From assembly GCA_963668315.1 (NCBI GenBank), contig OY764216.1, positions 4,896,001 through 4,960,000 of the forward strand: 64,000 bases of DNA. The letters are read 5' to 3'. Shown here piece after piece: positions 24,266 through 39,534 of the stretch (positions are counted from its first letter, which is position 1; every line of letters starts with the position of its first letter). The stretch is from Spirochaetia bacterium. GTDB taxonomy: Bacteria; Spirochaetota; Spirochaetia; DSM-2461. A program made the position numbers and the translations under genes. The notes under the pieces are model-generated. The model worked only from the letters and a program-made list of their open reading frames with translations, was not told where the DNA came from and searched no databases.

Positions 24266-25822
24266 TTATTTACCGCCCATGGCGATGAGCGCTTCCGTGG
24301 AATCGGCATCAAAGAGAATTCTCTCTGCCGCCCCCCCGTCGCCGTTCCAGGCTTCCCAGGTAACGCCGTTAACCGTTCCCGGATTTCCCGTATAGGCGAA
24401 CTGGGCGATATAGGCCATCATGGCGTCGCTCAGAGCGGTATAGCCCTTCTCGTTTTCGGGCCGGAAAATTCCCCGGTAGATATCCAGGTAGGGGTACTGA
24501 GCCCAGACCAGCGGAAGATCCAGGGCATGGCAGGCGCCGAACTGGATGGCCGAGTTTTCGTCGGGCCAGGCGTTGTAGCCGTCCTTATTATAGGCGCCGT
24601 AATTCAGCTGATAGGCGTAAAGGGCCGGCTGGTTCTCATGGGCCGCCATGGCCGTAAGGGGATTATCCACGGCGTTTTTAATCATGAAACCGGACATGGC
24701 GACCATATTCGCCTGGTACTCCTGAGCGGCGGCCGGATCAAAGGTGAAATAATTGAAGAGTTTCATCTCTTCCTTGTTGGCTCCCATAATAAGGGGAACC
24801 TGACGGTAGGTCGCGGGATCGTTCAGAGCTTCGGCGCCGTTGGAGGGAAGAACCGTTCCGTCCATCAGGGGCATAAGCTGATCGGCCAGCATACCGAATC
24901 CGCCTGGATGATACATATTCAGCAGCTCGTCCACGCTCTTGCTTCTCAGATACGCGGCGATCTCCGATTCGCCGATATCCGTTCTGCCGTCGGCTGCCAG
25001 CATCTCGTTCAGGACCCGTTCGCTGCTCTCATCGGCCTGTGAGACGGGCACCATATTGAATCCGCCGCTCTGGGACATGGCCTTGTGAAAAAGACCTTCT
25101 GTCCGGGGGGAAACAAGCAGACTGCAGACATTGAATCCGCCGGCCGACTCACCGGCGATCATGACATTATCGGGATTTCCGCCGAAGGCTTCGATATTCG
25201 TCTGAACCCACTGAAGGGCCTTGATCATATCCATGGTTCCGTAATTTCCCGATCCGTCCAGGGAGTTCTCCCCCTCTCTCAGGGCGGGATGGCTGAACCA
25301 GCCTAAAGGTCCCAGGCGGTAATTAATCGTAACGACAACCATATGGCTCTTGCCGGCGATATTCTGTCCCTCGTATTCTGAGGCGGATCCGACCGAATTG
25401 GCCCCACCGTGAATCCAGAAATAGACGGGGAGATCCCTTTCCTGCGTCCGGGGGCGCCAGACGTTCAGATAGAGGCAGTCCTCGCTGCCGATGACACTCT
25501 GCTCGCCGGGAAAATTGCCGTCGAACTGGGGAGCGACGGGACTGAATTCCGTGGTTTCCAGAACGCCCGTCCAGGCTTCGGGTTCCCGGGGGGCTTTCCA
25601 CCGGAGTTCTCCCACCGGCGGTTTGGCAAAGGGAATACCCTTCCAAGACCAGGTTTCTTTTTCGTCTTCCGCTCCCTGAACCAGACCTTTGTCAGTCTGA
25701 ACCAGTAATCCCAGAGAATCGCCATGGGCCTCTCCCTTTGTGGCGCATCCTGAGAGAACAGATAAAATCAGGGACATACTGAAAAACAGAAGTCCAAGCT
25801 TTGAAACTCTTTTTACAGACAT
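24266..25822 (-). CDS. Type-B carboxylesterase/lipase, predicted lipoprotein
   Basis: Lipobox 'VLSGC', 'GIPFAKPPVGELRW', 'SEDCLYLNVW', nucleophile motif 'GESAGG' and 'GACHALDL'. Confidence 0.9.
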   Translation of the reverse strand: MSVKRVSKLGLLFFSMSLILSVLSGCATKGEAHGDSLGLLVQTDKGLVQGAEDEKETWSWKGIPFAKPPVGELRWKAPREPEAWTGVLETTEFSPVAPQFDGNFPGEQSVIGSEDCLYLNVWRPRTQERDLPVYFWIHGGANSVGSASEYEGQNIAGKSHMVVVTINYRLGPLGWFSHPALREGENSLDGSGNYGTMDMIKALQWVQTNIEAFGGNPDNVMIAGESAGGFNVCSLLVSPRTEGLFHKAMSQSGGFNMVPVSQADESSERVLNEMLAADGRTDIGESEIAAYLRSKSVDELLNMYHPGGFGMLADQLMPLMDGTVLPSNGAEALNDPATYRQVPLIMGANKEEMKLFNYFTFDPAAAQEYQANMVAMSGFMIKNAVDNPLTAMAAHENQPALYAYQLNYGAYNKDGYNAWPDENSAIQFGACHALDLPLVWAQYPYLDIYRGIFRPENEKGYTALSDAMMAYIAQFAYTGNPGTVNGVTWEAWNGDGGAAERILFDADSTEALIAMGGK

Positions 25823-25974
25823 AATGACCTCACTTTCGTTTTACGATAAATGTAATAAAGAAAAATACAGAAAGGAATATCAATTAACACATATTATTTG
25901 CCTATTTATACATATATTGATAGCTATGTTATACTATAAATGGATTTTCATGCTTTTTTATCCATCATTCTGTT

Positions 25975-26252
25975 TTAAACAAAAATAGAAGCATGACTTC
26001 CCAGATCTTTCAGTTTCGGGATATCCACCTCATCGATACTGCCCAGCACCATAAGCGGCAGGGGCAGCTGGTGTTTAAAGGACTCGGCCGCCTTTGTAAC
26101 GTTAAGGGTGGCATGAAGTACGATGCTCCCTGCGGTTAATGTTATTCTGGTCCCGTTTTCCAGTCCGCGACGCTTCGGGGGACGGGAAAACCAGATAACC
26201 AGAAAAACCAAAATCATAAAACAATAATGAATTTCATCCTACTCGCATTCAC
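25975..26252 (-). pseudogene. Decayed cyclophilin-like fold protein (frameshift plus internal deletion)
   Basis: SD GAGGA and GTG at 26252 lead to (M)NASRMKFIIVL*. The hydrophobic anchor continues in another frame (MILVFLVIWF...). 'RITLTAGSIVLHATLNVTKAAESFKHQLPL' joins directly to 'LGSIDEVDIPKLKDLG', lacking the central segment present in the intact paralog at 29669-30115. Confidence 0.6.
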
Positions 26253-26262
26253 AATAAATCCT

Positions 26263-27165
26263 CTAGAAGGGAAATCTGTTGAGCAGAAGTCCGAGGACCA
26301 GGGAGAAGACCATCAGAAAGGCCACATAAAATCCTACCATTCTTTTGGACAGAAAACTTCCCAGAGCCGTCAGGGCGGTAATCCGGGTGGCGGGGCCGAC
26401 AATCAGAAAAGCCATGGCCGCGCCGGTGCTCATCCCGTTCTTCATGAGCATTTCCACCAGGGGAATTACGCCTCCCCCGCAGATATAGACGGGAATGCTT
26501 ACCAGGGCGGCGAAAAGAATGTTGAGCCACTCCCGGGTCGCTCTTTCAAAAAGCAGGGAGATAGGGACAATCGCTTCGAGGAATACGCTGAGCAGAACGC
26601 CCAGAACCAGATACTTGCCGATAAACTTAAAAGTCGACCATACCCCGAGCAGATACTCTTTCCACAGGAAGTTCCTTATATCCCTCTCCCGGCCGGAGCT
26701 TTTGCATTCGATTCTGCCGTTCACATTCCCCGCTTCCAAGGCCTTTCCCTTTCCCGCGAAAATCGTCAGGAGAGAGCCCAGCAGAAGGGAGAAGAGGAAA
26801 ACGCTGAACAGCCTGGCCAGGGAAAAGGTCAGGCCGAATCCTCCCCAGGTTACCAGAAACAGCTGGGGATTTATCAGGGAGGACGCTCCCAGAAAGGTTA
26901 TAAGAGGAGCCAGCGGGGTTCCCTTCTTATAAAGTTTGATGATGATCGGAACCGTCCCGTAGGTGCAAAGGGGCGACGCCATTCCCAGCAGGGCGGCGAA
27001 CAGAACCGACAGGGCCGGTGATTTCCTGACCGCCCGCTGCACGACATCCGCCCAGGATGTGTACTTGAGGATCTCCGCCAGCAGGACGCCGATGACGACA
27101 TAGGGCAGAAAAGTCAAAAGGAGCTCAACCGACCTCAGAATAAGGGCTGTCAGGAAATCAAACAC
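26263..27165 (-). CDS. ArsP/DUF318-family permease
   Basis: 'SPLCTYGTVP', 'FLGASSLINP', 'PVYICGGGVIP' and 'GAAMAFLIVGPAT' motifs. Confidence 0.85.
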   Translation of the reverse strand: MFDFLTALILRSVELLLTFLPYVVIGVLLAEILKYTSWADVVQRAVRKSPALSVLFAALLGMASPLCTYGTVPIIIKLYKKGTPLAPLITFLGASSLINPQLFLVTWGGFGLTFSLARLFSVFLFSLLLGSLLTIFAGKGKALEAGNVNGRIECKSSGRERDIRNFLWKEYLLGVWSTFKFIGKYLVLGVLLSVFLEAIVPISLLFERATREWLNILFAALVSIPVYICGGGVIPLVEMLMKNGMSTGAAMAFLIVGPATRITALTALGSFLSKRMVGFYVAFLMVFSLVLGLLLNRFPF

Positions 27166-27176
27166 AATCGTCCGCC

Positions 27177-28685
27177 TTAAATATCCACTTTCGTGCTGTT
27201 CAGGAATCGGTCGAATCCGTAAACGGCGATGGTGGAATCATCGTTATATTCCAGATTACCGAATGAGAAGTCCGCCGCCTTTCCCGTCACCGGCTGAGAA
27301 CCGGCCAGCCTGCCGTCGATATAAACGGCCACTTTGATCAGATCCTCATTCGATGTGAGGGAACCGGTCAGGCTGTCCCCTTCCAGGACGGAAGCGGTCA
27401 GACTGATTTCGGGGTTTTCATAATCGGTATATTTTCTGATGGCCTCCGCCTGGGAACCGAAGGGCTTCTTGATGTCGCTGACCCTGACGTTTCCCAGCAC
27501 ATTGATCCGCGCCGGATCCATGATGCCCATATGATCTTCGGCCAGGTATTTGAGGTAATCCACCTGTTCCGGATCCACACCGATGATGTAGGAGTGGATG
27601 GTGTCGATGGCCAGGGCGTTCTGAGCCGCCATGATGACTCTCATGTTCTTCTTGGCCCCTTCATAAGTGTCGGCGCCCTGGCCGATGGGACCGTATTCCA
27701 TGCCCTGCAGTCCGTCGGTAATAACGAAATCGACCGGTTTGACCATGTAGAAGTCGTGGATGAATTTGTTCAGGGGCTCCCAGGAGTGGTCCACTCCCAG
27801 ACGGCTCAGGGGCATGATGGTGGAGGCCATGACGGGATTGCCGTAAACCCGGGGCGGAGCGGTACCGATGCCCACGTTCTTGACACCCCCGGTTATGGCC
27901 GCATTTCCATGGCTTTTCAGCAGGGGAAGGTCGATGACCACATCGGCGGAGTAATAAAGTTCATCAATATAGTAGTTACCCTCGGTCCACTTGTCCAGAT
28001 CGTCGGTGTAGCGTTTATACTGGCCGATAGAAACCGCCGTCAGATCGCTGGTATCCACGGAGTACAGATCGTCTCCCGAATCATCGTAATTGAGGATTTC
28101 GTCGACTGCGGGCAGATTCTCCTTCGTCCATCCCAGAATCTCCATGTTACCCGCCGTATCGTCCCAGCAGGACGTTTCCATCACATAGATCTTCCCGTTC
28201 GGGTTCAATTCCCGTACCAGTTCGGAAGCGACCTTGATAACCCGGTAATCGGTGGCGATACCGTTCACTTTCTGCGCGAGCCTGTTCTCATCTTTGCTCG
28301 CCATACCATCCACACGGTGATAGGCCGAAATCAGATTGGGCTTGAGTACGACAAAGTCGCCGTCATGGACAATATCGCCGAGCCCGCCGGCCAGGGCTAC
28401 CGCCTCTTTTATCATAAGGCGGATATCCTCTTCGGTGATCTCTTCGGCGTGTTCCTTGTCACTCCGGATCAGAGCGACATCGGCAGTCTCTCCCTCATAG
28501 GTCTTAATGTCGGCTCTCTGTATATCCGTCAAGGGCTCAACGGAATTCATCCGGTAACTCTGACAGGCAAAAAAGACAAGGCCGATGACGATAATCGCGG
28601 CCAGAACAATCCCCGTTCTCTTCAGACCGGTAAGCAGGGATCTTTTCTTTTTCCCCTCTATTTTGACAGACTTCTCTCTTCCCAT
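27177..28685 (-). CDS. DUF362 domain protein with N-terminal membrane anchor and C-terminal beta-rich domain
   Basis: 'VVLKPNL', 'LKSH....TGGVKN.G', 'DGLQGMEYGP' and 'NALAIDT' DUF362 motifs. N-terminal basic and hydrophobic stretch. Start 28685 (AAGGAG SD) or 28700. Confidence 0.78.
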   Translation of the reverse strand: MGREKSVKIEGKKKRSLLTGLKRTGIVLAAIIVIGLVFFACQSYRMNSVEPLTDIQRADIKTYEGETADVALIRSDKEHAEEITEEDIRLMIKEAVALAGGLGDIVHDGDFVVLKPNLISAYHRVDGMASKDENRLAQKVNGIATDYRVIKVASELVRELNPNGKIYVMETSCWDDTAGNMEILGWTKENLPAVDEILNYDDSGDDLYSVDTSDLTAVSIGQYKRYTDDLDKWTEGNYYIDELYYSADVVIDLPLLKSHGNAAITGGVKNVGIGTAPPRVYGNPVMASTIMPLSRLGVDHSWEPLNKFIHDFYMVKPVDFVITDGLQGMEYGPIGQGADTYEGAKKNMRVIMAAQNALAIDTIHSYIIGVDPEQVDYLKYLAEDHMGIMDPARINVLGNVRVSDIKKPFGSQAEAIRKYTDYENPEISLTASVLEGDSLTGSLTSNEDLIKVAVYIDGRLAGSQPVTGKAADFSFGNLEYNDDSTIAVYGFDRFLNSTKVDI

Positions 28686-28740
28686 TCCTATCTCCTTCAT
28701 GTTTTTTCTGAGAAACGTTTCACCATGTCAGCCCGGAAGA

Positions 28741-29646
28741 CTACTTCCGGGAACTGAAAATCATGGAAAGTATGGCTTTAAAATTCAGCTTTCCCCCGTA
28801 GACGGGCATCAGGCTGGCATCTCCGTAATCCTTGATTTTCTCCACACTCTTCAGGGTTTCCATATCCTCATCGGAAATGATGAAATCGAGGGCGGCGTTG
28901 CTTTTCATATGATCCGGATTGGCCGTCTTGGGCAGGGGCAGAAGTCCCAGCTGCAGATCGTAGCGGATGGAAAGCTGGGGAACGGAGACGCCGTACCTTT
29001 CGGCGATGGCCTGGACTTCCCGGTTCTTCATAAGCTCACCGTGGGCTACGGGGGAGTAGGCTTCCACCAGAATTCCCTTCTCCTGGGTATAGTTGATCAG
29101 ATCGAGGGGGGTATTGCTTATATGGGCCAGGATCTGGTTGACCATGGGCTTTTCTTTACAGTTATTGAGAATGTTATCAAGATCTTCCTTCTCGAAGTTG
29201 GAAAGACCGATAGCCCGCAGTTTGCCCGCTTTGTAGGCGTCTTCCAGAGCCCGCCAGGCTTCCCGGTTCCCTTCGAAGAAGTGATCCCCCTCGCGGAATT
29301 TCGTCCAGGGCTGGGGACTGTGGATAATCATCATATCGATGTAATCCAGTCCCATGGTCTTAAGGGATTTGTCTATGGCCGCGGCGGCTTTCTTATAGCT
29401 CTTTGCTTCAGCGGCAAGCTTGGTGGTAACAAATAATTCCTTTCTGTCCACACCGCAGGTTCTCACGGCTTCTCCCACCCCGCGTTCGTTGCGGTAGGCC
29501 TGGGCCGTATCGATATGGCGGTAGCCGATTTTTACGGCATCCTTGACCGCCTGCACGACATTCTTGTCACTGATAAACCACGTACCCAGACCGAGCTTGG
29601 GTATTTCCACTCCGTTTGACAGAGTATACGTCTCATCCATAATCAT
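28741..29646 (-). CDS. Aldo/keto reductase (2,5-DKG reductase-like)
   Basis: 'GLGTW', 'GYRHIDTAQAY.NE', 'AIGLSNF', 'AYSP' and 'LPKT' motifs. Confidence 0.93.
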   Translation of the reverse strand: MIMDETYTLSNGVEIPKLGLGTWFISDKNVVQAVKDAVKIGYRHIDTAQAYRNERGVGEAVRTCGVDRKELFVTTKLAAEAKSYKKAAAAIDKSLKTMGLDYIDMMIIHSPQPWTKFREGDHFFEGNREAWRALEDAYKAGKLRAIGLSNFEKEDLDNILNNCKEKPMVNQILAHISNTPLDLINYTQEKGILVEAYSPVAHGELMKNREVQAIAERYGVSVPQLSIRYDLQLGLLPLPKTANPDHMKSNAALDFIISDEDMETLKSVEKIKDYGDASLMPVYGGKLNFKAILSMIFSSRK

Positions 29647-29668
29647 AAACTTTCTCCTCTAAGCCGTT

Positions 29669-30115
29669 TTACGGCAGTAATTCAAAGGTCATTTTCACGC
29701 TGCCCTTTCCCAGAATTTCCTTAAGCTCCTTCTGAGTCATACCGTCGATATGGCCGAGCTTCGTGAAATTCCACGAATTGACATTGTAATAAACCACAAG
29801 AGCGCTTCCCATATAAAGGATAATATCCCCGGGGGCCGTCCTGATCTGTCTGTTGTTCGTAGGGTACCGTCTTCCCAGCATCCCCACCTTTTCCATGGAC
29901 CCGTAATCCCTCATGCCTATTGTCTTGGGACCGCGGGTCAGAACTTTCTTAAAGGCCCGGGCCGATGTGTTATTCTCCATGGTAGCCGTCATTTCCCTGC
30001 CGTTCACCCGAATTTTCACCCTGTACTCTCCGTCAAGGGAGATTCGCCCGAAGCCGAGGGGGGTCAGGAAAAACAATCCCGCCGCCGCAATCACTATAAC
30101 TATTATCCAAATCAT
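29669..30115 (-). CDS. Cyclophilin-like fold protein with N-terminal membrane anchor
   Basis: 'TATMENNTSARAF', 'MRDYGSMEK', 'PGDIILY.GSALVVYY' and 'FTKLGHID' motifs. Start uncertain (30115 or 30148). Confidence 0.75.
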   Translation of the reverse strand: MIWIIVIVIAAAGLFFLTPLGFGRISLDGEYRVKIRVNGREMTATMENNTSARAFKKVLTRGPKTIGMRDYGSMEKVGMLGRRYPTNNRQIRTAPGDIILYMGSALVVYYNVNSWNFTKLGHIDGMTQKELKEILGKGSVKMTFELLP

Positions 30116-30338
30116 AATTTTCACCGTAATTTCCGTTTCACTTTCCATGGGAAGAACAAGGATGATAAAAGCCCCATCAAGTCTATTTATTATCAAGTAT
30201 AAGGGAGGGAACGGAAGAAAAGAATGTCAATTTCCACATTTTACATGCCTAATTATACATTTCTTACCTCTATTAGGTTTAATATTTCCCCATTATATGC
30301 ATAATTCAACATCATCATTGATAGAAAAGAGGGTTGCC

Positions 30339-31217
30339 ATGGACTCGAAAACAGCCGAAATGAAGAAACTGCTCCTGAAGAAACTTCCCAGGCAGGGAGT
30401 TGTCTTCACAGGCCTGGATAATATGGCCATTTTCAGAAGAGATCAGCCATATAATAAAAAACCGGAACTAACCCATCCTCATATCATGATTCTGGCCCAG
30501 GGGAAAAAGAGAGTTCATCAGGGAGAAAAAACATACATCTATGATCCGCTTCACTATTATGTTCAGACTCTGACACTCCCCCTGGAATGCGAGGCCATCA
30601 TCGAAGAGGATGAGCCGATACTGGGAATGGTTCTGAGAATAGATCCCGTGATTATCGGAGAAATCCTTTTTGAAATGCAGACCACGCCCTATAGGCAGAA
30701 GCCCGTAAGGGACAGCCTCTACGACGCATCCATAACGGATGATATTCTTGACGCCGCTATCAGACTGCTTCGTACCCTTGATTCCGAAGATGATCTGAAA
30801 ATCCTCGGTCCCATGTTCTACAAGGAGATCCTTTTCAAGATACTCAAGGGAGAAAAGGGAGAGATACTCAGGGAACTGGCCGTTAATAACAGAGGCTTCT
30901 ACCACATAGCCAAGGTGATCAACAGGATCCAGGAAAACTACTCCGATCCCATAGACATACAGTCACTGGCCCGGGAAGCGGGTATGAGCGTAACCGCCTT
31001 TCACGCCAATTTCAAAGCCATGACCAATACCTCCCCCCTGCAGTACGTGAAAAATATCCGACTCCACAAGGCCAAGGAAATGATCCAGCAGGAAGGGGAA
31101 AAGGCCAACACGGCGGCCCAGCGCGTCGGCTATGAAAGCTCATCCCAGTTCTCCAGGGAGTACAAGCGGTGTTTCGGGATACCCCCTTCAAAGGACAGGC
31201 TTCAGGACTCGGCCTGA
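30339..31217 (+). CDS. AraC family regulator (YqhC-like, AraC_N domain), divergent from the AKR operon
   Basis: 'ILAQGKKRV', 'AGMSVTAFHANFK..T..SPLQY.K.IRL' and 'VGYESSSQFSREYKRCFG' motifs. Start at ATG 30339. Confidence 0.9.
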   Translation: MDSKTAEMKKLLLKKLPRQGVVFTGLDNMAIFRRDQPYNKKPELTHPHIMILAQGKKRVHQGEKTYIYDPLHYYVQTLTLPLECEAIIEEDEPILGMVLRIDPVIIGEILFEMQTTPYRQKPVRDSLYDASITDDILDAAIRLLRTLDSEDDLKILGPMFYKEILFKILKGEKGEILRELAVNNRGFYHIAKVINRIQENYSDPIDIQSLAREAGMSVTAFHANFKAMTNTSPLQYVKNIRLHKAKEMIQQEGEKANTAAQRVGYESSSQFSREYKRCFGIPPSKDRLQDSA

Positions 31218-31262: not shown

Positions 31263-31327
31263 TTGACACATGGGATTTTCGTCTCTATTATTAGACACTG
31301 TCCACTATATACATTCATTGTCTATTT
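31263..31327 (+). promoter_or_regulatory. sigma70 promoter plus candidate TetR operator for reductase 1
   Basis: TTGACA 31263-31268, 17 bp, then TATTAT 31286-31291. TAGACACTGTCCA at 31292-31304 and TATACA-N5-TGTCTA at 31308-31324. Confidence 0.7.
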
Positions 31328-31341
31328 CGAGGAGATGGAAT

Positions 31342-33246
31342 ATGATAAAAAAAGGATTAATACCCTTACTTCTGGTAATGGTATCATTGTTCTTGTCCTG
31401 CGGGAACTATAAAGCAGGGACCTACACAGCCACGTCAATCGGAAGGAATGACAATATCACTCTCGAGTGTACATTCGACAAGGACAGGATAGAAACAATC
31501 TCTGTCCTTTCCCATAACGAGACTCCCGGCATCGGAACCGTGGCCCTGGACCGGATGACAAAAGCCATTACGGCCCATCAGTCTCTGGATGTGGATATCG
31601 TTACCGGCGCATCCCTGACTTCCTTCGCCGTCATCAGAGCCGTGGAAGACTGCGTCACCCAGGCGGGAGGCGATGTCAAAGAGCTGAGGGCTGTAAAAGT
31701 CCCCGGGGAAACTCTCGCCAGTACGGAAAGAACCGCCGACATCATCATTGTGGGAGCCGGCGGAGCCGGTATGTCCGCGGCCCTGGCTGCCTCCGAAACG
31801 GGAGCCTCCGTCATCATAGCGGAAACCAACAGCATCATCGGCGGCAACACGATCGTCTCAGGTATGTGCTGGAACGCGGCCGACCCCGAAGAGTGCGCCC
31901 TTACCGAATCCAACAGGGGGCAGTTTGCCCTGCTCCAGAGCTTCCTCGATATGGATGAGGCTGCTGTGGAAGACTACGCTCCCACCCTGAGAATTCTCAA
32001 AAAACAGATCCGCGAATATCTGGCCGGAGATACGACCTATATGTTCGACTCTCCCGAGCTGCATATCATGCAGTTCTGGACGGGATGCCGCCGCCAGGGT
32101 CTGGACGGAACCTGGATCAAGAGCGATATAGACCTGGCCAAGGAATTCGCCTATTCCAGTCTTGACGGCATCAAATGGCTGAAGGGCTACGGCATTGAAT
32201 TCAAGGACGGCATGGAAACCGTATTCGGAGGTCTCTGGCAGCGGGGTCACCTCTTTGCCGACAAGGAGAAGACGTTCCTTGATATCGAAGACAATATTGA
32301 AAGGCTCGGTGCCGATATCATGCTCAACACCCATGTGGACGAGCTGATTGTTGAAAACGGCAGAGTAACCGGCGTCAAGGCCACCTACAGAGGAGAGACA
32401 CCGGTCATTCTGCATGCCAATAAGGCGGTAATCCTTACTTCCGGCGGATTCTCCGGCAACAAGGAGATGGCCGACAAGTACAATAATTACTGGCCCGCCG
32501 GTCTCAGCGGCGTCGCTTCGGACAATATCGCCTCCACCCAGGGCGACGGCATTGTCATGGCCCAGGCCATCGGCGCCGATACGGAAGGCATGGGCTACGC
32601 CCAGCTTTTCCCCGCGGTGAATGCGGTCACCATGGACATGGGACCCTGCAGCGGGACGGGTGCATCCGAAGCGATCTATATCAACAAAGAGGGTCAACGC
32701 TTCGTTAACGAATATTCCGAAAGGGATGTCATGAGCAAGGCCGTACTCGAACAGACCGACGGGAGGATTTTCCAGATTTTCGACGATACGGTCATGCAGC
32801 ACAAACTGGAGATAGGCAGAGGTCCGACGGAAGAGGGCTACCGGCATTACCTGGAGATTCATGCTCTCTACAAGGTCAACAGCCTGGAAGAAGCGGCGGA
32901 AGTCATCGGCTGTGATGCCGCCGCCTTCAAAGCTACCGTTGAAGCCTACAACAAAGCCGTGGACGACAGCTATGACCCCCTAACGGGAAGAACTGTTTTC
33001 GGGGAAAAATTCGATACGGCTCCCTTCTATATTGCCCCTGCCAAACCCAGCATTCACAACACCATGGGCGGTTTGAAAATCAATACGGAAAATGCCGTAC
33101 TGAATACCGGCGGAACTCCCATTCCCGGCCTTTTTGCCGCCGGTGAAGTGACGGGCGGTCTTCATGCGGGGAACCGCCTCGGCGGAAATGCCGTGGCCGA
33201 TGCCTTTGTCATGGGCCGCAACGCCGGTATGAACGGCGTCAAATAA
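31342..33246 (+). CDS. Lipoprotein flavocytochrome-c/urocanate-reductase-like FAD reductase with N-terminal FMN-binding (flavinylation) domain
   Basis: Lipobox 'LFLSC', FMN_bind motif 'VDIVTGASLTS', FAD motif 'GAGGAG', and active-site motifs 'RFVNEYSERD', 'HNTMGG' and 'HAGNRLGGNA'. Confidence 0.88.
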   Translation: MIKKGLIPLLLVMVSLFLSCGNYKAGTYTATSIGRNDNITLECTFDKDRIETISVLSHNETPGIGTVALDRMTKAITAHQSLDVDIVTGASLTSFAVIRAVEDCVTQAGGDVKELRAVKVPGETLASTERTADIIIVGAGGAGMSAALAASETGASVIIAETNSIIGGNTIVSGMCWNAADPEECALTESNRGQFALLQSFLDMDEAAVEDYAPTLRILKKQIREYLAGDTTYMFDSPELHIMQFWTGCRRQGLDGTWIKSDIDLAKEFAYSSLDGIKWLKGYGIEFKDGMETVFGGLWQRGHLFADKEKTFLDIEDNIERLGADIMLNTHVDELIVENGRVTGVKATYRGETPVILHANKAVILTSGGFSGNKEMADKYNNYWPAGLSGVASDNIASTQGDGIVMAQAIGADTEGMGYAQLFPAVNAVTMDMGPCSGTGASEAIYINKEGQRFVNEYSERDVMSKAVLEQTDGRIFQIFDDTVMQHKLEIGRGPTEEGYRHYLEIHALYKVNSLEEAAEVIGCDAAAFKATVEAYNKAVDDSYDPLTGRTVFGEKFDTAPFYIAPAKPSIHNTMGGLKINTENAVLNTGGTPIPGLFAAGEVTGGLHAGNRLGGNAVADAFVMGRNAGMNGVK

Positions 33247-33301
33247 TATCTGAGGATTTGTTCATAAAATAATTCTTCTTTAACATGTAAAAAAGTGATG
33301 C

Positions 33302-33340
33302 AGGCGGGATTCTCCCCGGAAGGGGAATTCCGCCTTTTTT
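33302..33340 (+). terminator. Rho-independent terminator
   Basis: AGGCGGGATTCTCC-CCGGAA-GGGGAATTCCGCCT followed by a T run. Confidence 0.8.
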
Positions 33341-33387
33341 CGCCCTCATATTTGATACTTTTTTAACTATATTTTTTTATCCAATCG

Positions 33388-33451
33388 TTGACAAGGGTGA
33401 AAACCGGGGTTATATTGTCCTCTGTCTATTTTACACAGACAGTGTCTATTT
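33388..33451 (+). promoter_or_regulatory. sigma70 promoter plus candidate TetR operator for reductases 2/3
   Basis: TTGACA 33388-33393, 17 bp, then TATATT 33411-33416. TACACA-GACAG-TGTCTA at 33432-33448. TGTCTATTT at 33423 and 33443. Confidence 0.7.
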
Positions 33452-33476
33452 ATGAATTAAAACAAGGAGAGATGAA

Positions 33477-35397
33477 ATGAAAAAAAAGGAGAGTTTTCCC
33501 TCTGTTCGCCCTGATCTGTGCCATGGCTGTTCTGGCATCATGCGGAAAGGGCAAGGCCGATTCGGTCTTCACCTATGCCGATACGATCGTCTGGGACGGG
33601 CAGTATGATGTTGTGGTTATCGGCTTCGGCGCCGCCGGAGCGGTATCGGCCAAGTATGCCGCCGAAGCGGGGGCGAATGTACTGATCACGGAAAAGGCGC
33701 CCCAGGGAGAATCGGGGGGTAACTCCCGCCTGTGCGGGCAGATTATCATGAATACCGACGATCCAGAGTCTTTGTTCAAATACTATAAAGCCATGGGGGG
33801 AGCCACGAAATCGGTATCCGATTCCATGCTCAGAACCTATGTCAACGGCATAGGAGAAACGGTAAACCAGGTGGTTAATGACTACGGCGCCGACAGGGAG
33901 GCCATTTTTGCCTGGAAAACGACCGGTATCCCCCGGTACGTCAGCGAATATCCTGAGTTTGAATATAACGACGCGGTCAAGATCTCCACCCTCTCCCGGA
34001 AGGATGTCTCCAACGGCGCCCTCTATCGGCTGGAAAGCTCCGCAGCCTCTTCCAAGGAGAATGTGGACGTCTGGTTTGACTCTCCCGCGGTCGGACTGAT
34101 TCAGGAGCCCCAGTCAAAGACGATTATCGGTGTCGTTATCGAGAGAGAGGGAAAAGAGCTGAACATCAGAGCCAACAACGGTGTCGTCATGGCCCTGGGC
34201 GGTTTTGAGAATAACCCCCTGATGATGGAAGATTACTGCGGCCTAACATCCTATACCTTCAACGGCACGCCCTATAATACGGGTGACGGCATCTATATGG
34301 CCACCAAGGTCGGTGCCAAACTCTGGCATATGGATGTCTATGAGGGAAGCATGGGCCCCTTCGGCGCCGCCTGTATCGAAGGATCGAACCACTGGACCCT
34401 TCCCCCGTCCTTTGCCAGCGGCAGTGTCATCCATGTCGGTTCAAGCGGCGAGAGGTTCCTCCGCGAAGACGAGGGAGCCCGTCACGGCCATGTCGGCCAT
34501 GCCGGTACCTGGCTGAATCCCCAGTATCCCGACCGCAGTTACCTGGTATTCGACAAGGCAAAATATGACGAGCTGATGAGTCTTCCCTCCCTTTCGGCCC
34601 GATCCACCGTTCCCACGTCCGTTCTCAGCGACAACGCCATCATGGGAAATACGCTGGAAGAACTCTGCGCCAATGCGGATATTGACTACAACGGTCTTAA
34701 ACATGAAATCGCCGAATACAACGGATTCGCCCGTACGGGTAACGACATCAAGCTGGACCGTTCGGCGGGAACCATGTCCCCCATCAGCTCCCGGGGCCCC
34801 TACTACGCGGTTAAAATCGTACCGAGCATCCTCAACACTCAGGGCGGTCCCGAGAGAAATGAAAATGCCCAGATTCTGAGCGTGGACGATGAGCCGATTC
34901 CCCACCTCTACTCCGCCGGTGAGTTCGGAGGCATCACGAGCCACATGTATAACGGCGGCGGCAACATGGCCGAGTGTCTCATCTTCGGCAAGATCGCCGG
35001 AACCAATGCGGCGAAAGCCAAAGAGCCCCTCCCCGCCTACGTCCAGCGTACAAAGGTCGAATCCAGCATGGTATATGTACCCGGCTATGCCACGGATATT
35101 TCTAACGAAACCTATGAAACCGGTGAAAACGAATACATCGGAATCGGTCAGGGAATAGGAGGCGATCTGGTCATCAGGGCAAAAGTGGAAAAGGGCGCCA
35201 TCACGGCCCTTGAGATTCTCAAGGAGAATGAAACGGAAGGCATCGGCTCCCATGCCATCGAGCAGCTTCCCGCCATGTTTGTCGGGATGGATTCCGTCGA
35301 TGGCGTAAACGGAGTTGATACCGTTTCCGGTGCTACCGTAACAAGCAACGCTCTGAAAAGTGCTGTCGGAGCGGCGCTTCAGGAAGCCCAAAAATAG
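33477..35397 (+). CDS. Lipoprotein FAD-dependent reductase with C-terminal FMN-binding domain, frameshifted at an A8 tract in the signal peptide (rest of the frame, 33523-35397, intact)
   Basis: AAGGAG SD lies 7 nt before ATG 33477. Removing one A from 33480-33487 gives MKKRRVFPLFALICAMAVLASC, collinear with the paralog's MKKRRVLSLFSLVCAVIMLASC. Motifs 'GFGAAG', 'LNTQGGP', 'YNGGGNMAE' and 'VDTVSGATVTS'. Confidence 0.82.
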
Positions 35398-35453
35398 TGA
35401 TTCCGGTCCTGCCCTTCCCGGGGCAGGGCTTGTATAAAAAAAGGAGTGAATCA

Positions 35454-37373
35454 ATGAAAAAAAGGAGAGTATTATCTCTGTTTTCTCTCGTCTGTGCCGT
35501 GATTATGCTGGCATCCTGCGGAGAGGGAAAGGCCGATACGGTCTTCACCTATGCCGATACGATCGCCTGGGACGGACAGTACGATGTTGTTGTTATCGGC
35601 TTCGGTGGCGCCGGTTCTGTGGCGGCGAAATATGCCGAAGACGGGGGCGCCAAAGTTCTGGTGGCGGAAAAGGCACCGGAAGGACATGAGGGGGGAAACT
35701 CCCGGGTCTGCGGTCAGTTTTTCAATTCCACCGAGGATTATGAAAGCCTTCTTAAATATTACCAGGCCAAAGCCGGTGATACCACGACCGTTTCGGACAC
35801 GATGCTGAAAACCTATGTGCGCGGTATGTCCAATATTGTGGACCAGCTGGTAAACGACTTCGGTGCCGACAGGGGCAAAATCTACAGCTGGTATGAGACA
35901 GGCGTTCCCATGATGATGACCGAATATCCCGAGTTCGAAGGCTCCGATTCGGTAAGAATCCGCTCCATCTCCCAGAAAGACGTGGGTAACGGGGGACTCT
36001 ACCGCCTTCTCAGTAAAGCGGCCAGAACCGAAGACAATATTGATGTCTGGTTTGACTCCCCCGCCGTCGGTCTTATTCAGGATCCCGATACGAAGACAAT
36101 TCTCGGAACGGTTATCGAAAGGGACGGCAAAAAACTGAATATCCGGGCCAGAAACGGTGTAGTCATGGCGCTGGGCGGCTTTGAAAACAACCCCGAAATG
36201 ATTCAGAACTATCTGGGTCTGACCTCCTATGCCTTCAACGGCGGCGCCTATAATACGGGTGACGGTATCAATATGGCCATCGAAGCGGGAGCCAAGCTCT
36301 GGCATATGGAAGTCTACGAAGGCAGCATGGGCCCCTTCGGAAATATCTGTTTCGAAGGAATCAGAGGCTGGAGTCCCTCCAATGATTTCGCCACGGGAAG
36401 TTTAATCTACGTAGGGGAAAACGGTCAGAGATTCCTGAGGGAAGACGAAAGATCCCGCCACGGCCACGTCTCCCTGGGCGGTGTATGGGTTACCCCGAAA
36501 CGTCCGGAAAGGGCTTTTCTCGTCTTTGACAAGGCCAAATACGATGAGCTGATGAGTCTGAAAACTCTCGCCTCCAGAGCGAATGTTGATCCTGCCATTA
36601 TCGATGAGAAAGCCATAGTCGGCAGTACCCTTGAAGAACTGTGCGGGAAGACGAATATCAGCTATGACGGACTGAGCCGGGAAATTGCCAACTATAACAA
36701 CTTTGCCCGGACCGGTGTGGATCTGAAACTGGGAAGGGACGCTAAAAATATGGCTGCCTTCAACACCAGCGGTCCCTACTACGCTATCAGAGTCGTCCCC
36801 AATATTCTGAACACCCAGGGCGGTCCCCAGCGTAATGAGAACGCCGAGATTCTCGATACCAAGGGAAATCCCATTCCCCACCTCTACTCTGCGGGAGAAT
36901 TCGGCGGCATAACGAGCAATATGTACACCGCCGGGGGCAACATGGCGGAATGTATCATTTTCGGTAAACTGGCCGGAACCAACGCGGCAGCCGAAAAAGC
37001 TCCCCTTCCCGCCTATACCCAGCGGACGAAGATCGAATCGGAAATGGTTTATGTTCCCGGATACGAGACGGATATTTCCGAACAGACCTACGAAACGGGT
37101 GATAACGAATATATCGGTATCGGCCAGGGAATCGGCGGTGATCTGGTCCTTAAAGTGACCGTTGAGAAAGGCGCCGTCACAGGCCTGGAAATACTCAAAC
37201 AGAACGAGACCGAGGGAATCGGCTCCAAGGCGATTGAGCAGCTGCCCGCGCAATTCGTCGGCATGGATTCGGTAGAGTCCGTCAATGCCGTTGATACCGT
37301 TTCCGGTGCGACTGTAACAAGCAACGCCCTGAAAAACGCGGTAAGTTCCGCACTTCAGGAAGCAGCGAAGTGA
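35454..37373 (+). CDS. Lipoprotein FAD-dependent reductase with C-terminal FMN-binding domain (intact tandem paralog)
   Basis: AAGGAG SD, ATG 35454, lipobox 'MLASC', and motifs 'GFGGAG', 'LNTQGGP', 'YTAGGNMAE' and 'VDTVSGATVTS'. Collinear with the previous gene over its full length. Confidence 0.88.
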   Translation: MKKRRVLSLFSLVCAVIMLASCGEGKADTVFTYADTIAWDGQYDVVVIGFGGAGSVAAKYAEDGGAKVLVAEKAPEGHEGGNSRVCGQFFNSTEDYESLLKYYQAKAGDTTTVSDTMLKTYVRGMSNIVDQLVNDFGADRGKIYSWYETGVPMMMTEYPEFEGSDSVRIRSISQKDVGNGGLYRLLSKAARTEDNIDVWFDSPAVGLIQDPDTKTILGTVIERDGKKLNIRARNGVVMALGGFENNPEMIQNYLGLTSYAFNGGAYNTGDGINMAIEAGAKLWHMEVYEGSMGPFGNICFEGIRGWSPSNDFATGSLIYVGENGQRFLREDERSRHGHVSLGGVWVTPKRPERAFLVFDKAKYDELMSLKTLASRANVDPAIIDEKAIVGSTLEELCGKTNISYDGLSREIANYNNFARTGVDLKLGRDAKNMAAFNTSGPYYAIRVVPNILNTQGGPQRNENAEILDTKGNPIPHLYSAGEFGGITSNMYTAGGNMAECIIFGKLAGTNAAAEKAPLPAYTQRTKIESEMVYVPGYETDISEQTYETGDNEYIGIGQGIGGDLVLKVTVEKGAVTGLEILKQNETEGIGSKAIEQLPAQFVGMDSVESVNAVDTVSGATVTSNALKNAVSSALQEAAK

Positions 37374-37377
37374 TGTG

Positions 37378-37408
37378 AAGGGCCTTTCCTGCGGGAAAGG
37401 CCCTTTTT
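37378..37408 (+). terminator. Rho-independent terminator
   Basis: AAGGGCCTTTCC-TGCG-GGAAAGGCCCTT followed by a T run. Confidence 0.85.
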
Positions 37409-37467
37409 CATTACGCCGCCCTATGCTATCATACCGTCAGATTTCAGGAAAAGACAGGATTGAAAAA

Positions 37468-38091
37468 ATGAGCCGGAGAACAAAAGATACAAGACAGGCG
37501 TTAATCAATGCGGGGATCAAACTCATTAAAGAAAATGGGTATCAGGATATCACGATTGAGAGTATCTGCAAATTCGCCGGAACAGGAAGATCAACCTTCT
37601 ATACCTACTTCAAGGGAATGGAAGAACTGGTAGCCGCCTATTTTGACGTTCTCAATACCTACACGCCGGAGAGAATGGCATGGATATTCAGTTCCTCCCA
37701 CCCTTCAGAACGGATATTGAAAACCCATCTTTCCCTCTTCTGCGATCCGCAGAATTACCGGGATGTGAGCCTTTACTCCCTCAGGCTGAAATATTTTCTC
37801 AGCGCCCCCGATGAAAAGAATCTCCATGTTGCCGATATACAGAAGAAGATACTAATCCCCATGGTCGAAGAGGCCCAGCAAAAGGGGGAGATCCTGAATA
37901 TATCAAAGCCTGAAGACCTTTGCAATTCAGCGGTTACCCTTCAGATGGGAAATATCATGGCGTGGTGCATATCGGACGGCGCCTTTGACAGGCTGGGAAA
38001 ACTAAAGGAGAATCTGGAGAATCTGTACTGCATCCGGGAAGATTTGCGCTCCGCCGAATCGATAGAGACCTGGTTGAAATTCGGCGAATAA
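37468..38091 (+). CDS. TetR/AcrR family transcriptional regulator
   Basis: 'LIKENGYQDITIESICKFAGTGRSTFYTYFKG' HTH. Start at ATG 37468. Confidence 0.88.
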   Translation: MSRRTKDTRQALINAGIKLIKENGYQDITIESICKFAGTGRSTFYTYFKGMEELVAAYFDVLNTYTPERMAWIFSSSHPSERILKTHLSLFCDPQNYRDVSLYSLRLKYFLSAPDEKNLHVADIQKKILIPMVEEAQQKGEILNISKPEDLCNSAVTLQMGNIMAWCISDGAFDRLGKLKENLENLYCIREDLRSAESIETWLKFGE

Positions 38092-38093
38092 CC

Positions 38094-38870
38094 TCAGACG
38101 TAGGCCACCCCGTGCTTCTTCTGTTTTTTTATTTCATACATGGTCTGATCGGCTTTTTTTAGAAGAACATCCATATCTTCCCCATGGTCGGGATAGACCG
38201 AAACGCCCATACTGGCCTTGACCGAAATAGTCACATCCTTAAAGGTTCGCGGTTTTATAATGGCATGGGAGATTCTCTCCGCCAGGGGATGAATGATCCG
38301 GGAGTCAGCTCCCAACGAGAACAGAACCACCAGTTCATCGCCGCCTATCCGCGCCACCATATCCCCTTCGCGAACCACATGATTCAGATCCTCGCCCACC
38401 GACTTGAGAATAAAATCACCGAAGTCATGGCCATAGGTATCGTTCATTATCTTGAAGTCGTTTAGGTCGATATAGAGAAGAGCATATTTCCCGCCTTTTT
38501 CCTCCATCACCAGGCTTTCAAAAAACTCTTCCAGAACGTATCTGTTATAAAGATTCGTCAGCGGATCCCGCTCCGCCTTTGTCTTTCGGCGGAAATCTCT
38601 GTTTCGGGGAGACACAGATTAAAGGATTTATGGAACTGAAAATAGAGAAGATTCATCATTCCGCAGCTGAGCAGCGTGGTGTAAAGAACCAGATACTTGT
38701 CCATTCTCAAGGAAGCCAGGAACATGAGAATCGGGTAGAGAAGTATGGCAGCCGATGTGGCCGTGAGGATGGGGGAATTAAAAGCGGCATCGTAGTAGTT
38801 GTAGGTGGCGATGGAAAAAACATTCAGTGTCAGTCCCGGAGAGACGGTTGTCAACAATACAGTGAGAGGG
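38094..38870 (-). pseudogene. Disrupted membrane-bound diguanylate cyclase (5'-truncated TM fragment frameshifted from a GGDEL domain)
   Basis: The hydrophobic fragment 38558-38857 has no credible start and overlaps, in another frame, the ORF 38094-38615 carrying 'DPLTNLYNR', 'DLNDFK.MNDTYGH..GD' and 'RIGGDEL'. Confidence 0.65.
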
Positions 38871-38943
38871 GCGGCTCCTTTGTCTATTGAGCCGGCGGTT
38901 TATTCAGCTTGACTTTATATATATTTATCAATATATTAAAAAA

Positions 38944-39534
38944 ATGAATTTTCGCTGGTTTTACCTTCTTACTATTACCTATTTTCTCCTGCCCATGGTG
39001 AATATCCTGTTTGCCTTCTCGGCCATCTTTTGTATGACCCTTCCTTTCATTCTTCTGAGCCGGACAGGAAAAAAGACCTGGTGTGCCGCCATCTGCCCCC
39101 GGTCTCACTTTCTCTCAAAACTGAAATTTCTCAATATCGGAATAAAGTCGCCCCGCCGGCTTACGGGCGAAAACATGGGGCGAAACATGCTCTCTTACTT
39201 TGGAATCAACCTCTTTTTTATAACCCTGTCGACACTGATGGTATCCATAGGAAGGATCGCCCCTATCGATAAGATACGTCTTCTCATCGTCTTTCAGCTC
39301 CCCTTCGGGCTTCCCCAGCTGATCCCTTTCCACACCCTTCCTGCCCCTTTGCTACATCTGGGATACCGGTTTTATTCGCTTATGCTCACCTCAACGCTTA
39401 TCGGTATAGGACTCGCCGTACTCTTCAAACCGAGAACCTGGTGCGCCATCTGTCCCGTCAATACCCTGAGCACCAGTCTGCTTGGGAAAATCCCCCCTAA
39501 CCCCGACGAGGAGAACCATGAAAAAACAATTTAA
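38944..39534 (+). CDS. Small integral-membrane Fe-S protein (NapH/Fer4_5-like, two Cys-Pro motifs)
   Basis: 'TWCAAICPRS' and 'PRTWCAICPVNT' between TM helices. ATG 38944 lies 6 nt after a -10 box (TTGACT-17-TATATT) with no SD. Confidence 0.78.
   Translation: MNFRWFYLLTITYFLLPMVNILFAFSAIFCMTLPFILLSRTGKKTWCAAICPRSHFLSKLKFLNIGIKSPRRLTGENMGRNMLSYFGINLFFITLSTLMVSIGRIAPIDKIRLLIVFQLPFGLPQLIPFHTLPAPLLHLGYRFYSLMLTSTLIGIGLAVLFKPRTWCAICPVNTLSTSLLGKIPPNPDEENHEKTI

Follow-up and report, generated by a model that had tools for sequence, protein, structure and literature searches.

Predicted periplasm-facing flavin reductases of a spirochaete, an adjacent TetR-family regulator and an operator also found at a distant chemoreceptor gene

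ApbE-flavinylated, fumarate-reductase-like proteins form a large class, of which Meheust et al. (PMC8238504), in the available part of their paper, counted 3070 in 1236 genomes. Reductases of this kind are induced by their own acceptors via neighbouring regulators, and two of them, CirC and CirD, are both induced by cinnamate (Little et al., bioRxiv 10.1101/2022.12.26.521950; cited throughout for the part of the text available). Here we describe a locus of three adjacent reductase genes, g1, g2 and g3, followed by a tetR gene, in a 64-kb stretch of a spirochaete genome (source genome G000, C1:4896001-4960000; 'the window', to which positions without a contig prefix refer). The spirochaete host, surmised in an earlier sequence-only reading, is borne out by three FlaA genes in the genome, compared with none in 14 control genomes.

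Our reading, which we hold with moderate confidence, is that three predicted periplasm-facing flavin reductases, two intact and the third frameshifted, are encoded here, likely as terminal reductases for an organic, probably cinnamate-type acceptor, and that they are likely repressed by the TetR protein through an operator in common with a chemoreceptor gene. The enzyme class is known, and the three genes are new members of it, two of them in the CirC clade. What is new is the recurrence of operator, reductase and TetR gene in a second genome, a perfect operator at a chemoreceptor promoter and an arsenal of 17 reductase open reading frames (ORFs) in a spirochaete. The features of the locus are as follows (aa, amino acids; nt, nucleotides).

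31263..31291, plus strand: sigma70-like promoter of g1, TTGACA-17-TATTAT, 11/12 consensus
31292..31304: operator site 1, TAGACACTGTCCA, one mismatch, directly after the g1 -10 box
near 31319: extra half-site TGTCTATTT by operator site 1
31342..33246, plus strand: g1, 634-aa predicted lipoprotein reductase, PF00890 and PF04205 above cut-off
33302..33345, plus strand: predicted intrinsic terminator 3' of g1, z -2.7
33388..33416, plus strand: sigma70-like promoter of g2-g3, TTGACA-17-TATATT, 11/12 consensus
upstream of operator site 2: extra half-site TGTCTATTT
33436..33448: operator site 2, CAGACAGTGTCTA, one mismatch, 19 nt 3' of the -10 box
33477..35397 (open frame 33481-35397), plus strand: g2, CirC-clade reductase, frameshifted, PF00890 and PF04205 above cut-off
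35454..37373, plus strand: g3, 639-aa predicted lipoprotein reductase, PF00890 and PF04205 above cut-off
37377..37411, plus strand: predicted intrinsic terminator 3' of g3, z -5.5, 0/200 shuffles as stable
37468..38091, plus strand: tetR, TetR-family regulator, 207 aa, profile match
38094..38615, minus strand: GGDEF-domain gene between tetR and the iron-sulphur (Fe-S) gene, outside the module
38944..39534 (alternative start 38887), plus strand: small membrane protein, weak Fer4_5, two CxxxCP, outside the module

The reductase genes and their relatives

Profile searches supported the sequence-only reading in its view of the domains: each of the three genes combines an FAD_binding_2 domain (PF00890) with an FMN_bind domain (PF04205), and none contains a CxxCH heme motif. 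The flavinylation motif is DIVTGAS in an N-terminal FMN_bind domain in g1 (85-91) and DTVSGAT in a C-terminal one in g2 and g3 (614-620 in g3), with Ser91 of g1 and Thr620 of g3 as the predicted attachment residues for flavin mononucleotide (FMN). A lipobox had been claimed for all three genes; judged by eye and pattern, as were all export signals, those of g1 (Cys20) and g3 (Cys22) stand, while the signal peptide of g2 has been lost by frameshift, and with it the notion of three working enzymes. A single apbE gene lies outside the window at C1:3970294-3971142 (Pfam E 1e-84; a 253-aa piece falls below the NCBIfam cut-off). Membership of the exported flavinylated reductases, with a periplasm-facing location, is predicted with high confidence.

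g2 and g3 are 68% identical to each other; compared with g1, their FAD domains show about 24% identity. Proteins corresponding to CirA, CirC and CirD were sought in five genomes of the genus of the Holdemania record and identified by residue numbering, the mutated residues of Little et al. being numbered on UniProt models. One protein (L112), read from an upstream ATG, carries the CirC residues E311/Y511, and its 654-aa form is UniProt B9Y8D9 (P0390) of H. filiformis; two others gave exact matches to the numbering of CirD (L143, R542/R716) and CirA (L161, R417/Y469/Y634). The 311/511 numbering occurs in 1 of 123 other clade members, and no CirA orthologue was found among the source-genome proteins compared. 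Identity to the CirC-numbered protein is 46% for g3 and 45% for g2, and both fall together with L112 in the tree (SH-like approximate likelihood ratio test (SH-aLRT) 99; all trees were quick IQ-TREE runs supported by SH-aLRT only). Glu289 and Tyr491 of g3 are the equivalents of residues essential in CirC, and a Tyr occupies the latter position, alignment position 6, in clades 2-4 (Little et al.). The essential pair, an identity above 30% and monophyly place g2 and g3 in the CirC clade, CirC itself being identified via numbering, and g1 falls in clade 1 near CirD, a placement that does not support the idea of wholly uncharacterised enzyme types.

In g3 the FAD_binding_2 domain contains Gln88, Glu289, Arg335-His-Gly-His, Asn453-Thr-Gln and Tyr491, and within the clade Gln88, Glu289, RHG, NTQGG and Tyr491 are invariant in 123/123 aligned sequences. 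The fumarate-reductase residues His504 and Arg544 (Fcc3 positions) are absent from g2 and g3, which have Leu and Tyr in their place. The clade is large (1444 matches at E<=0.001, other clades included, with dozens of 50% clusters scoring high with the profile), and most records that carry it, at 39-52% identity, bear the names Clostridia, Erysipelotrichaceae or Eggerthellaceae. An AlphaFold2 model of g3 (mean predicted local distance difference test score 92.6) adopts a predicted flavocytochrome c/KstD fold and matches Fcc3, UrdA and KstD.

This fold also allows g2 and g3 to be read as periplasmic cyclic-ketone or steroid dehydrogenases (or enone reductases) of the KstD / delta4-KSTD type that feed the chain via covalent FMN. 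The invariant Tyr491 aligns with Tyr486 (SEQRES numbering) of 4AT0, presumably the residue that, as Tyr466, takes part in carbonyl binding; KstD is also the second-best NCBIfam model, and among the structure matches the folds of KstD and of cyclohexanone dehydrogenase come close to the top. However, the KstD scores of 148-166 bits fall far below the cut-off of 789, the Tyr equivalent being the only residue in common, the assays of the CirC-numbered protein, which is 46% identical, were for reductase activity (Little et al.), and no steroid or ketone catabolic genes adjoin g3 or its orthologue in the second genome described below. We regard the dehydrogenase reading as very improbable.

g2 is broken at its very start. 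The ATG linked to a Shine-Dalgarno (SD) sequence, at 33477, is followed by eight A residues (33480-33487) where g3 has seven, which yields an out-of-frame peptide of 43 aa. An in-frame ATG at 33472 runs into AAA TGA and another at 33523 lies inside the h-region without an SD sequence; no start supplies an in-frame, usable signal peptide. Contigs of runs X1-X3, all from a single sample that may be the assembly's source, lend no support to sequencing error as the cause: they show 0 differences and 0 gaps over 33300-33700; run X4 did not cover the A-run. Rescue by -1 frameshifting at A_AAA_AAG was rejected, the frame needed being +1, and dedicated phase variation is disfavoured because A-runs after an SD-linked ATG are common in this genome (69 A6, 34 A7, 9 A8 and 2 A9). 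Apart from the frameshift g2 is intact, retaining, like g3, 91 of the 92 columns conserved at >=97% in the clade, so the slip appears recent; reversion of the A-run is possible.

By its sequence, g1 is a clade-1 Arg/Arg enoate-type reductase. Its Arg461/His572/Arg612 correspond to Arg411/His520/Arg560 of UrdA and Arg402/His504/Arg544 of Fcc3, and Arg461 and Arg612 are the two active-site arginines that mark clade 1 (the UrdA/CirD type). It carries neither the fumarate nor the urocanate determinants, as defined in the available parts of PMC7921117 and bioRxiv 10.1101/2022.01.20.477176, because Phe423 occupies the position of Fcc3 His365 and UrdA Tyr373 and Gly438 that of UrdA Asp388. Motif II (His365/Thr377) and Motif III (Glu378/Arg381) of fumarate reductases are lacking, with no EAVRG, as are the UrdA features Tyr373, Asp388 (or Asn/Gln) and >50% identity (36% to the UrdA-like L148). 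Specificity is not fixed by these active-site positions, according to the available part of Bertsova et al. The best family matches of g1 are 43-46% identical. g1 and the CirD-numbered L143 fall in one subclade (SH-aLRT 99). Another candidate for CirD, L129, had a fitting Arg spacing (174), but no start gave 542/716; with L143, not L129, fitting the CirD numbering, the link of g1 to CirD is at the level of the subclade only. g1 is not the CirD orthologue of this genome, the closest relative of L143 in the tree being a gene at C1:5392569.

Operator, regulator and chemoreceptor

The operator proposed as common to both promoters was confirmed in its placement. The promoters of g1 and g2-g3 are the best two sigma70-like sites of the region, at 11/12 each, and the palindrome TAGACA-S-TGTCTA occurs at both; with at most one mismatch the window contains sites 31292-31304 and 33436-33448 and no others. 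No shuffle out of 100 gave two matches, the motif having been derived from these two sites. The predicted transcription units are g1 alone, g2-g3, which are separated by a hairpin without a U-tail, and tetR, which has a promoter-like site at 37405-37432 without an operator. A search for a riboswitch at the locus gave no Rfam match.

The link between TetR gene and operator recurs in a second genome, L012, the metagenome-assembled genome of another spirochaete, which serves as an independent check of the motif. It encodes a single g3 orthologue (69%), preceded in order by a 12/12 promoter, a perfect TAGACACTGTCTA and the SD sequence, and downstream a TetR protein 53% identical to that of the window, with a near-identical recognition helix. 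This operator is the only perfect site in that genome of about 5 Mb, in which a reversed-pattern control also occurs once. A conserved palindrome overlapping promoters together with a co-occurring regulator is hence present in two genomes, with binding as the prediction, and it is very likely that the adjacent TetR acts as a repressor through this palindrome.

The only perfect operator of the source genome lies 1.36 Mb from the locus, at C1:3570682-3570694, inside the 17-bp spacer of TTTACA...TAAAAT and 157 nt upstream of a dCache_1-HAMP-MCPsignal gene starting at C1:3570839. This site and the L012 operator have 16 nt in common. A crude gene map gives an expectation of 0.003-0.008 perfect sites for intergenic sequence, and of about 2e-5 for promoter spacers. 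We consider it likely from this arrangement that the chemoreceptor belongs to the TetR regulon, and one repressor would then probably couple synthesis of the reductases to swimming towards their substrate. For the ligand class of the chemoreceptor, Atlas returned no more than a generic dCache_1 assignment. Upstream of the operator (L043:14500-14650) there are several hairpins and a second promoter-like site; a riboswitch before the chemoreceptor was looked for, with no Rfam match.

Several observations weigh against this coupling. The link to the chemoreceptor is seen in one genome only; no orthologue of the chemoreceptor was found in the L012 genome (best 26-28%) or in three congeners, and no relative of its sensor domain among 4830 candidates. 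The genome has about 40 chemoreceptor (MCP) genes, and the second promoter-like site, further upstream, has no operator. Nor is the motif enriched in the source genome (1 perfect site vs 0.30 expected, 5 one-mismatch sites vs 11 expected), so the case for the operator rests on placement. The reductase-TetR module could be real and the chemoreceptor site coincidental or another regulator's, the locus being an ordinary, partly decaying, horizontally gained reductase island. Decay is suggested by the broken g2 and at least two other broken paralogues. As to lateral gain, a search of 60 relatives gave no orthologues of g2/g3 (best 34-35% along long stretches), nor were TetR orthologues found at E<=1e-20 in 400 phylum genomes, the best match in 37 family genomes being 30%, and a metagenome scan for TetR orthologues gave two weak helix-turn-helix matches only; this absence from the family and phylum genomes searched fits recent lateral gain. 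Coincidence has to contend with a site that is perfect, intergenic and within a promoter spacer, and that matches the L012 operator so closely, and we judge it unlikely.

Three other TetR-reductase pairs have palindromes of their own: C1:3105369 (CTAGAACGCGTTCTAG), 4114294 (TGACCATGGTCA/TGACCGCGGTCA) and 2478297 (ATGACTATCGTCAT).

Reductases, electron donors and quinone genes across the genome

The source genome contains 23 FMN_bind matches and 17 ORFs combining FMN and FAD domains, three of them g1, g2 and g3, alongside 4 related FAD-only ORFs. Fourteen of the 17 have canonical motifs, two AGAT and one SGCT; one is truncated, and g2 is frameshifted. Most reductases whose neighbours were scanned adjoin a regulator (TetR, MerR, AraC, LysR, Crp or two-component). 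Of 38 family genomes, four have FMN_bind counts of 24, 23, 18 and 16; the remaining 34, several of them incomplete, have 1-7. Members of a sister genus (G007, G020 and G030) have comparable arsenals, with 16-24 matches, mostly in frames of 580-820 aa.

Candidate electron donors, which the sequence-only reading proposed to look for, are present above cut-off: an rnf cluster, an Nqr/Rnf-like cluster and three NapH-like genes, together with MenA and a cluster of an mqnL-type decarboxylase, UbiA and UbiX. In this cluster (C1:4388600-4391600) the genes for the mqnL-type decarboxylase, UbiX and an MqnP-like prenyltransferase precede an ABC transporter, and the separate MenA lies at C1:5286976; such a quinone capacity, without MqnA/D, is unusual for a spirochaete. 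The small membrane Fe-S protein that had been counted with the module drops out of it. Its Fer4_5 match (PF12801) reaches 21.4 bits against a cut-off of 22, and its gene lies behind the opposite-strand GGDEF gene without an operator and with a promoter-like site of its own. Of 37 family genomes 15 have a homologue, and at the 7 loci inspected no reductase lies within 1.5 kb; in G010 a signal-less FAD_binding_2 gene lies 1.8 kb away. With a sub-cut-off domain and no conserved linkage to reductases, it was rejected as an electron donor or NapH-like flavinylation part.

Energy-conserving respiration is the likely purpose of these enzymes. The rival view is that they detoxify electrophilic enoates or enones in the periplasm, or serve as a fermentative electron dump, without energy conservation, in which case the chemoreceptor could mediate avoidance. 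V. ruber Crd and V. harveyi Ard, which also pair FAD_binding_2 with FMN_bind, are interpreted as detoxifying in the available parts of the sources, and the locus contains no dedicated donor gene. However, Crd and Ard are NADH-linked through an extra dehydrogenase domain, whereas g1 and g3 are predicted lipoproteins without one, like UrdA and the Cir enzymes, and the genome retains 17 such ORFs, including an Fcc3-like fumarate reductase, as well as quinone genes. We find detoxification or an electron dump quite improbable.

Several of the other reductase loci deserve description. A double-FMN lipoprotein reductase (C1:5392569-5395112; L050:5573-8014, minus strand), 50% identical to the CirD-numbered protein, is likely the genome's broad cinnamate reductase; its gene and that of an AraC regulator are divergently oriented, and genes for MtaB/corrinoid methyltransferases lie nearby. 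Behind the Fcc3-like flavinylated fumarate reductase (C1:2976181-2982600) come a CitA/DcuS-type two-component pair and genes for another FAD reductase, for NusG_II and for component I of heptaprenyl diphosphate synthase. Two reductases with twin-arginine (Tat-type) signals surround tatC and a small tatA-like gene (C1:2466827-2479900), where a third reductase, a TetR gene and a NapH-like gene are also found; one of the two has DEVSGAS outside any FMN_bind domain. Two paralogous loci of a Crp regulator and a reductase (C1:3561686-3562888 and 4458750-4460402) are both broken, one reductase being internally truncated and the other split near its FMN domain. Stand-alone FMN_bind proteins, candidate electron shuttles, are encoded at C1:2775400-2775759 and 1124099-1124539, the latter paired with one NapH-like and one TetR-like gene. 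Upstream of g1 (24266-31217) lie genes for a carboxylesterase lipoprotein, an ArsP-type permease, a DUF362 Fe-S protein, an aldo-keto reductase, a cyclophilin-like protein and AraC_N; a similar AraC_N module adjoins the reductase at C1:4192449, and one may speculate that the esterase could free cinnamates from esters. An aromatic ammonia-lyase as cinnamate supply was discarded, as the only lyase with a 4-methylideneimidazole-5-one (MIO) group lies far from the locus and looks histidase-like by eye.

Proposed mechanism and comparison with known systems

In the mechanism that we propose, g1 and g3 would be exported and lipid-anchored, facing the periplasm, and ApbE would attach FMN at g1 Ser91 and g3 Thr620. 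The electrons would come from a donor in the membrane, which may be menaquinone, one of the Rnf, Nqr/Rnf-like or NapH-like systems, or both, and move to FMN, on to FAD and, as hydride, to a C=C bond, g1 holding the carboxylate by Arg461/His572/Arg612 and g3 using the Glu289/Tyr491 pair. The acceptor or its product would detach TetR from all three promoters, so that two unrelated reductases would be induced together with the dCache_1 chemoreceptor. A cinnamate-type ligand is a tentative guess by analogy, somewhat short of an even chance, made because both nearest characterised relatives are cinnamate-induced.

Other points tell against this proposal. The whole case is built from sequence and predicted structure, with binding, expression and activity all predicted, and one of the three genes is broken. 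CirC reduces cinnamate only weakly (Little et al.), and the CirA, CirC and CirD identities depend on residue numbers. g1 is 32% identical to the CirD-numbered L143 (36% in the FAD domain), a value that hardly differs from its 36% to the UrdA-like L148; the CirD orthologue is instead C1:5392569 (50%; paired with L143, SH-aLRT 100), which lacks the operator. MqnA/D were not found in the genome.

Such spirochaetes are usually regarded as fermenters. With 16-24 FMN_bind matches each, 4 of the 38 family genomes suggest that respiration of organic acceptors is a strain-specific trait. If the proposal is true, the locus would provide a link between respiration and motility that the available parts of the gut-model work do not address. 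For the CirC clade, whose known substrate is a weak one, three promoters, the TetR protein and the sensor domain would be three independent handles on the substrate, and with a regulon that comprises a TetR protein, a pair of unrelated reductases and a chemoreceptor, ligand screens could find that substrate. A bolder and rather unlikely extension is that some spirochaetes outside the gut models are a further lineage of versatile organic-acceptor respirers, and that in the present genome one TetR ligand induces a dedicated dCache_1 chemoreceptor as well as the periplasmic reductases, both serving the same lignin-derived phenylpropanoid; chemotaxis to an organic acceptor of respiration would then be direct and inducible.

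Literature listings and abstract starts contained neither a spirochaete reductase arsenal nor a TetR regulon of reductases and chemoreceptor, in a search that left most subscription journals outside, and the string 'spiroch' is absent from the main text of PMC8238504, bioRxiv 10.1101/2022.12.26.521950 and bioRxiv 10.1101/2024.03.13.584918, whose supplements may list spirochaetes. The locus resembles the class of Meheust et al. (PMC8238504) in its fusion of PF00890 and PF04205, its export signals and an apbE gene elsewhere in the genome; it differs in its spirochaete host, given the main text just mentioned, and in co-regulation with a chemoreceptor, which is not in the part of that text examined. 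S. oneidensis UrdA (6T85) and Shewanella Fcc3 have the same fold, and g1 retains their Arg/His/Arg set, but it lacks Tyr373/Asp388 and His365/Thr377/Glu378, and g1-g3 have no hemes. With CirD, by the numbering of L143, g1 has in common an N-terminal FMN_bind domain, both arginines, the His, a GxLW loop and an insertion after GGNT, whereas it differs in overall identity (32%), in HNTMGG and in the Phe at the His365 position.

Like the 'high-reductase' gut bacteria (Eggerthellaceae, Erysipelotrichaceae and Burkholderiaceae), the source genome has many dispersed reductases, most by a regulator of their own, with patchy gain and loss. It may differ in number, with about 21 flavin reductase genes (molybdopterin enzymes uncounted) against a threshold of >30 flavin plus molybdopterin reductases, and differs in a host that is a motile spirochaete with a predicted link to a chemoreceptor. 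H. filiformis CirC has the same layout as g2 and g3, a lipoprotein with an FAD domain and then a C-terminal FMN_bind domain with SGAT, the Glu/Tyr pair, RHGH and NTQGG, but it is not a close orthologue and the substrate may differ; here the genes form a tandem duplicate with one frameshifted copy, in a spirochaete, under an operator in common with a clade-1 reductase and, as predicted, a chemoreceptor.

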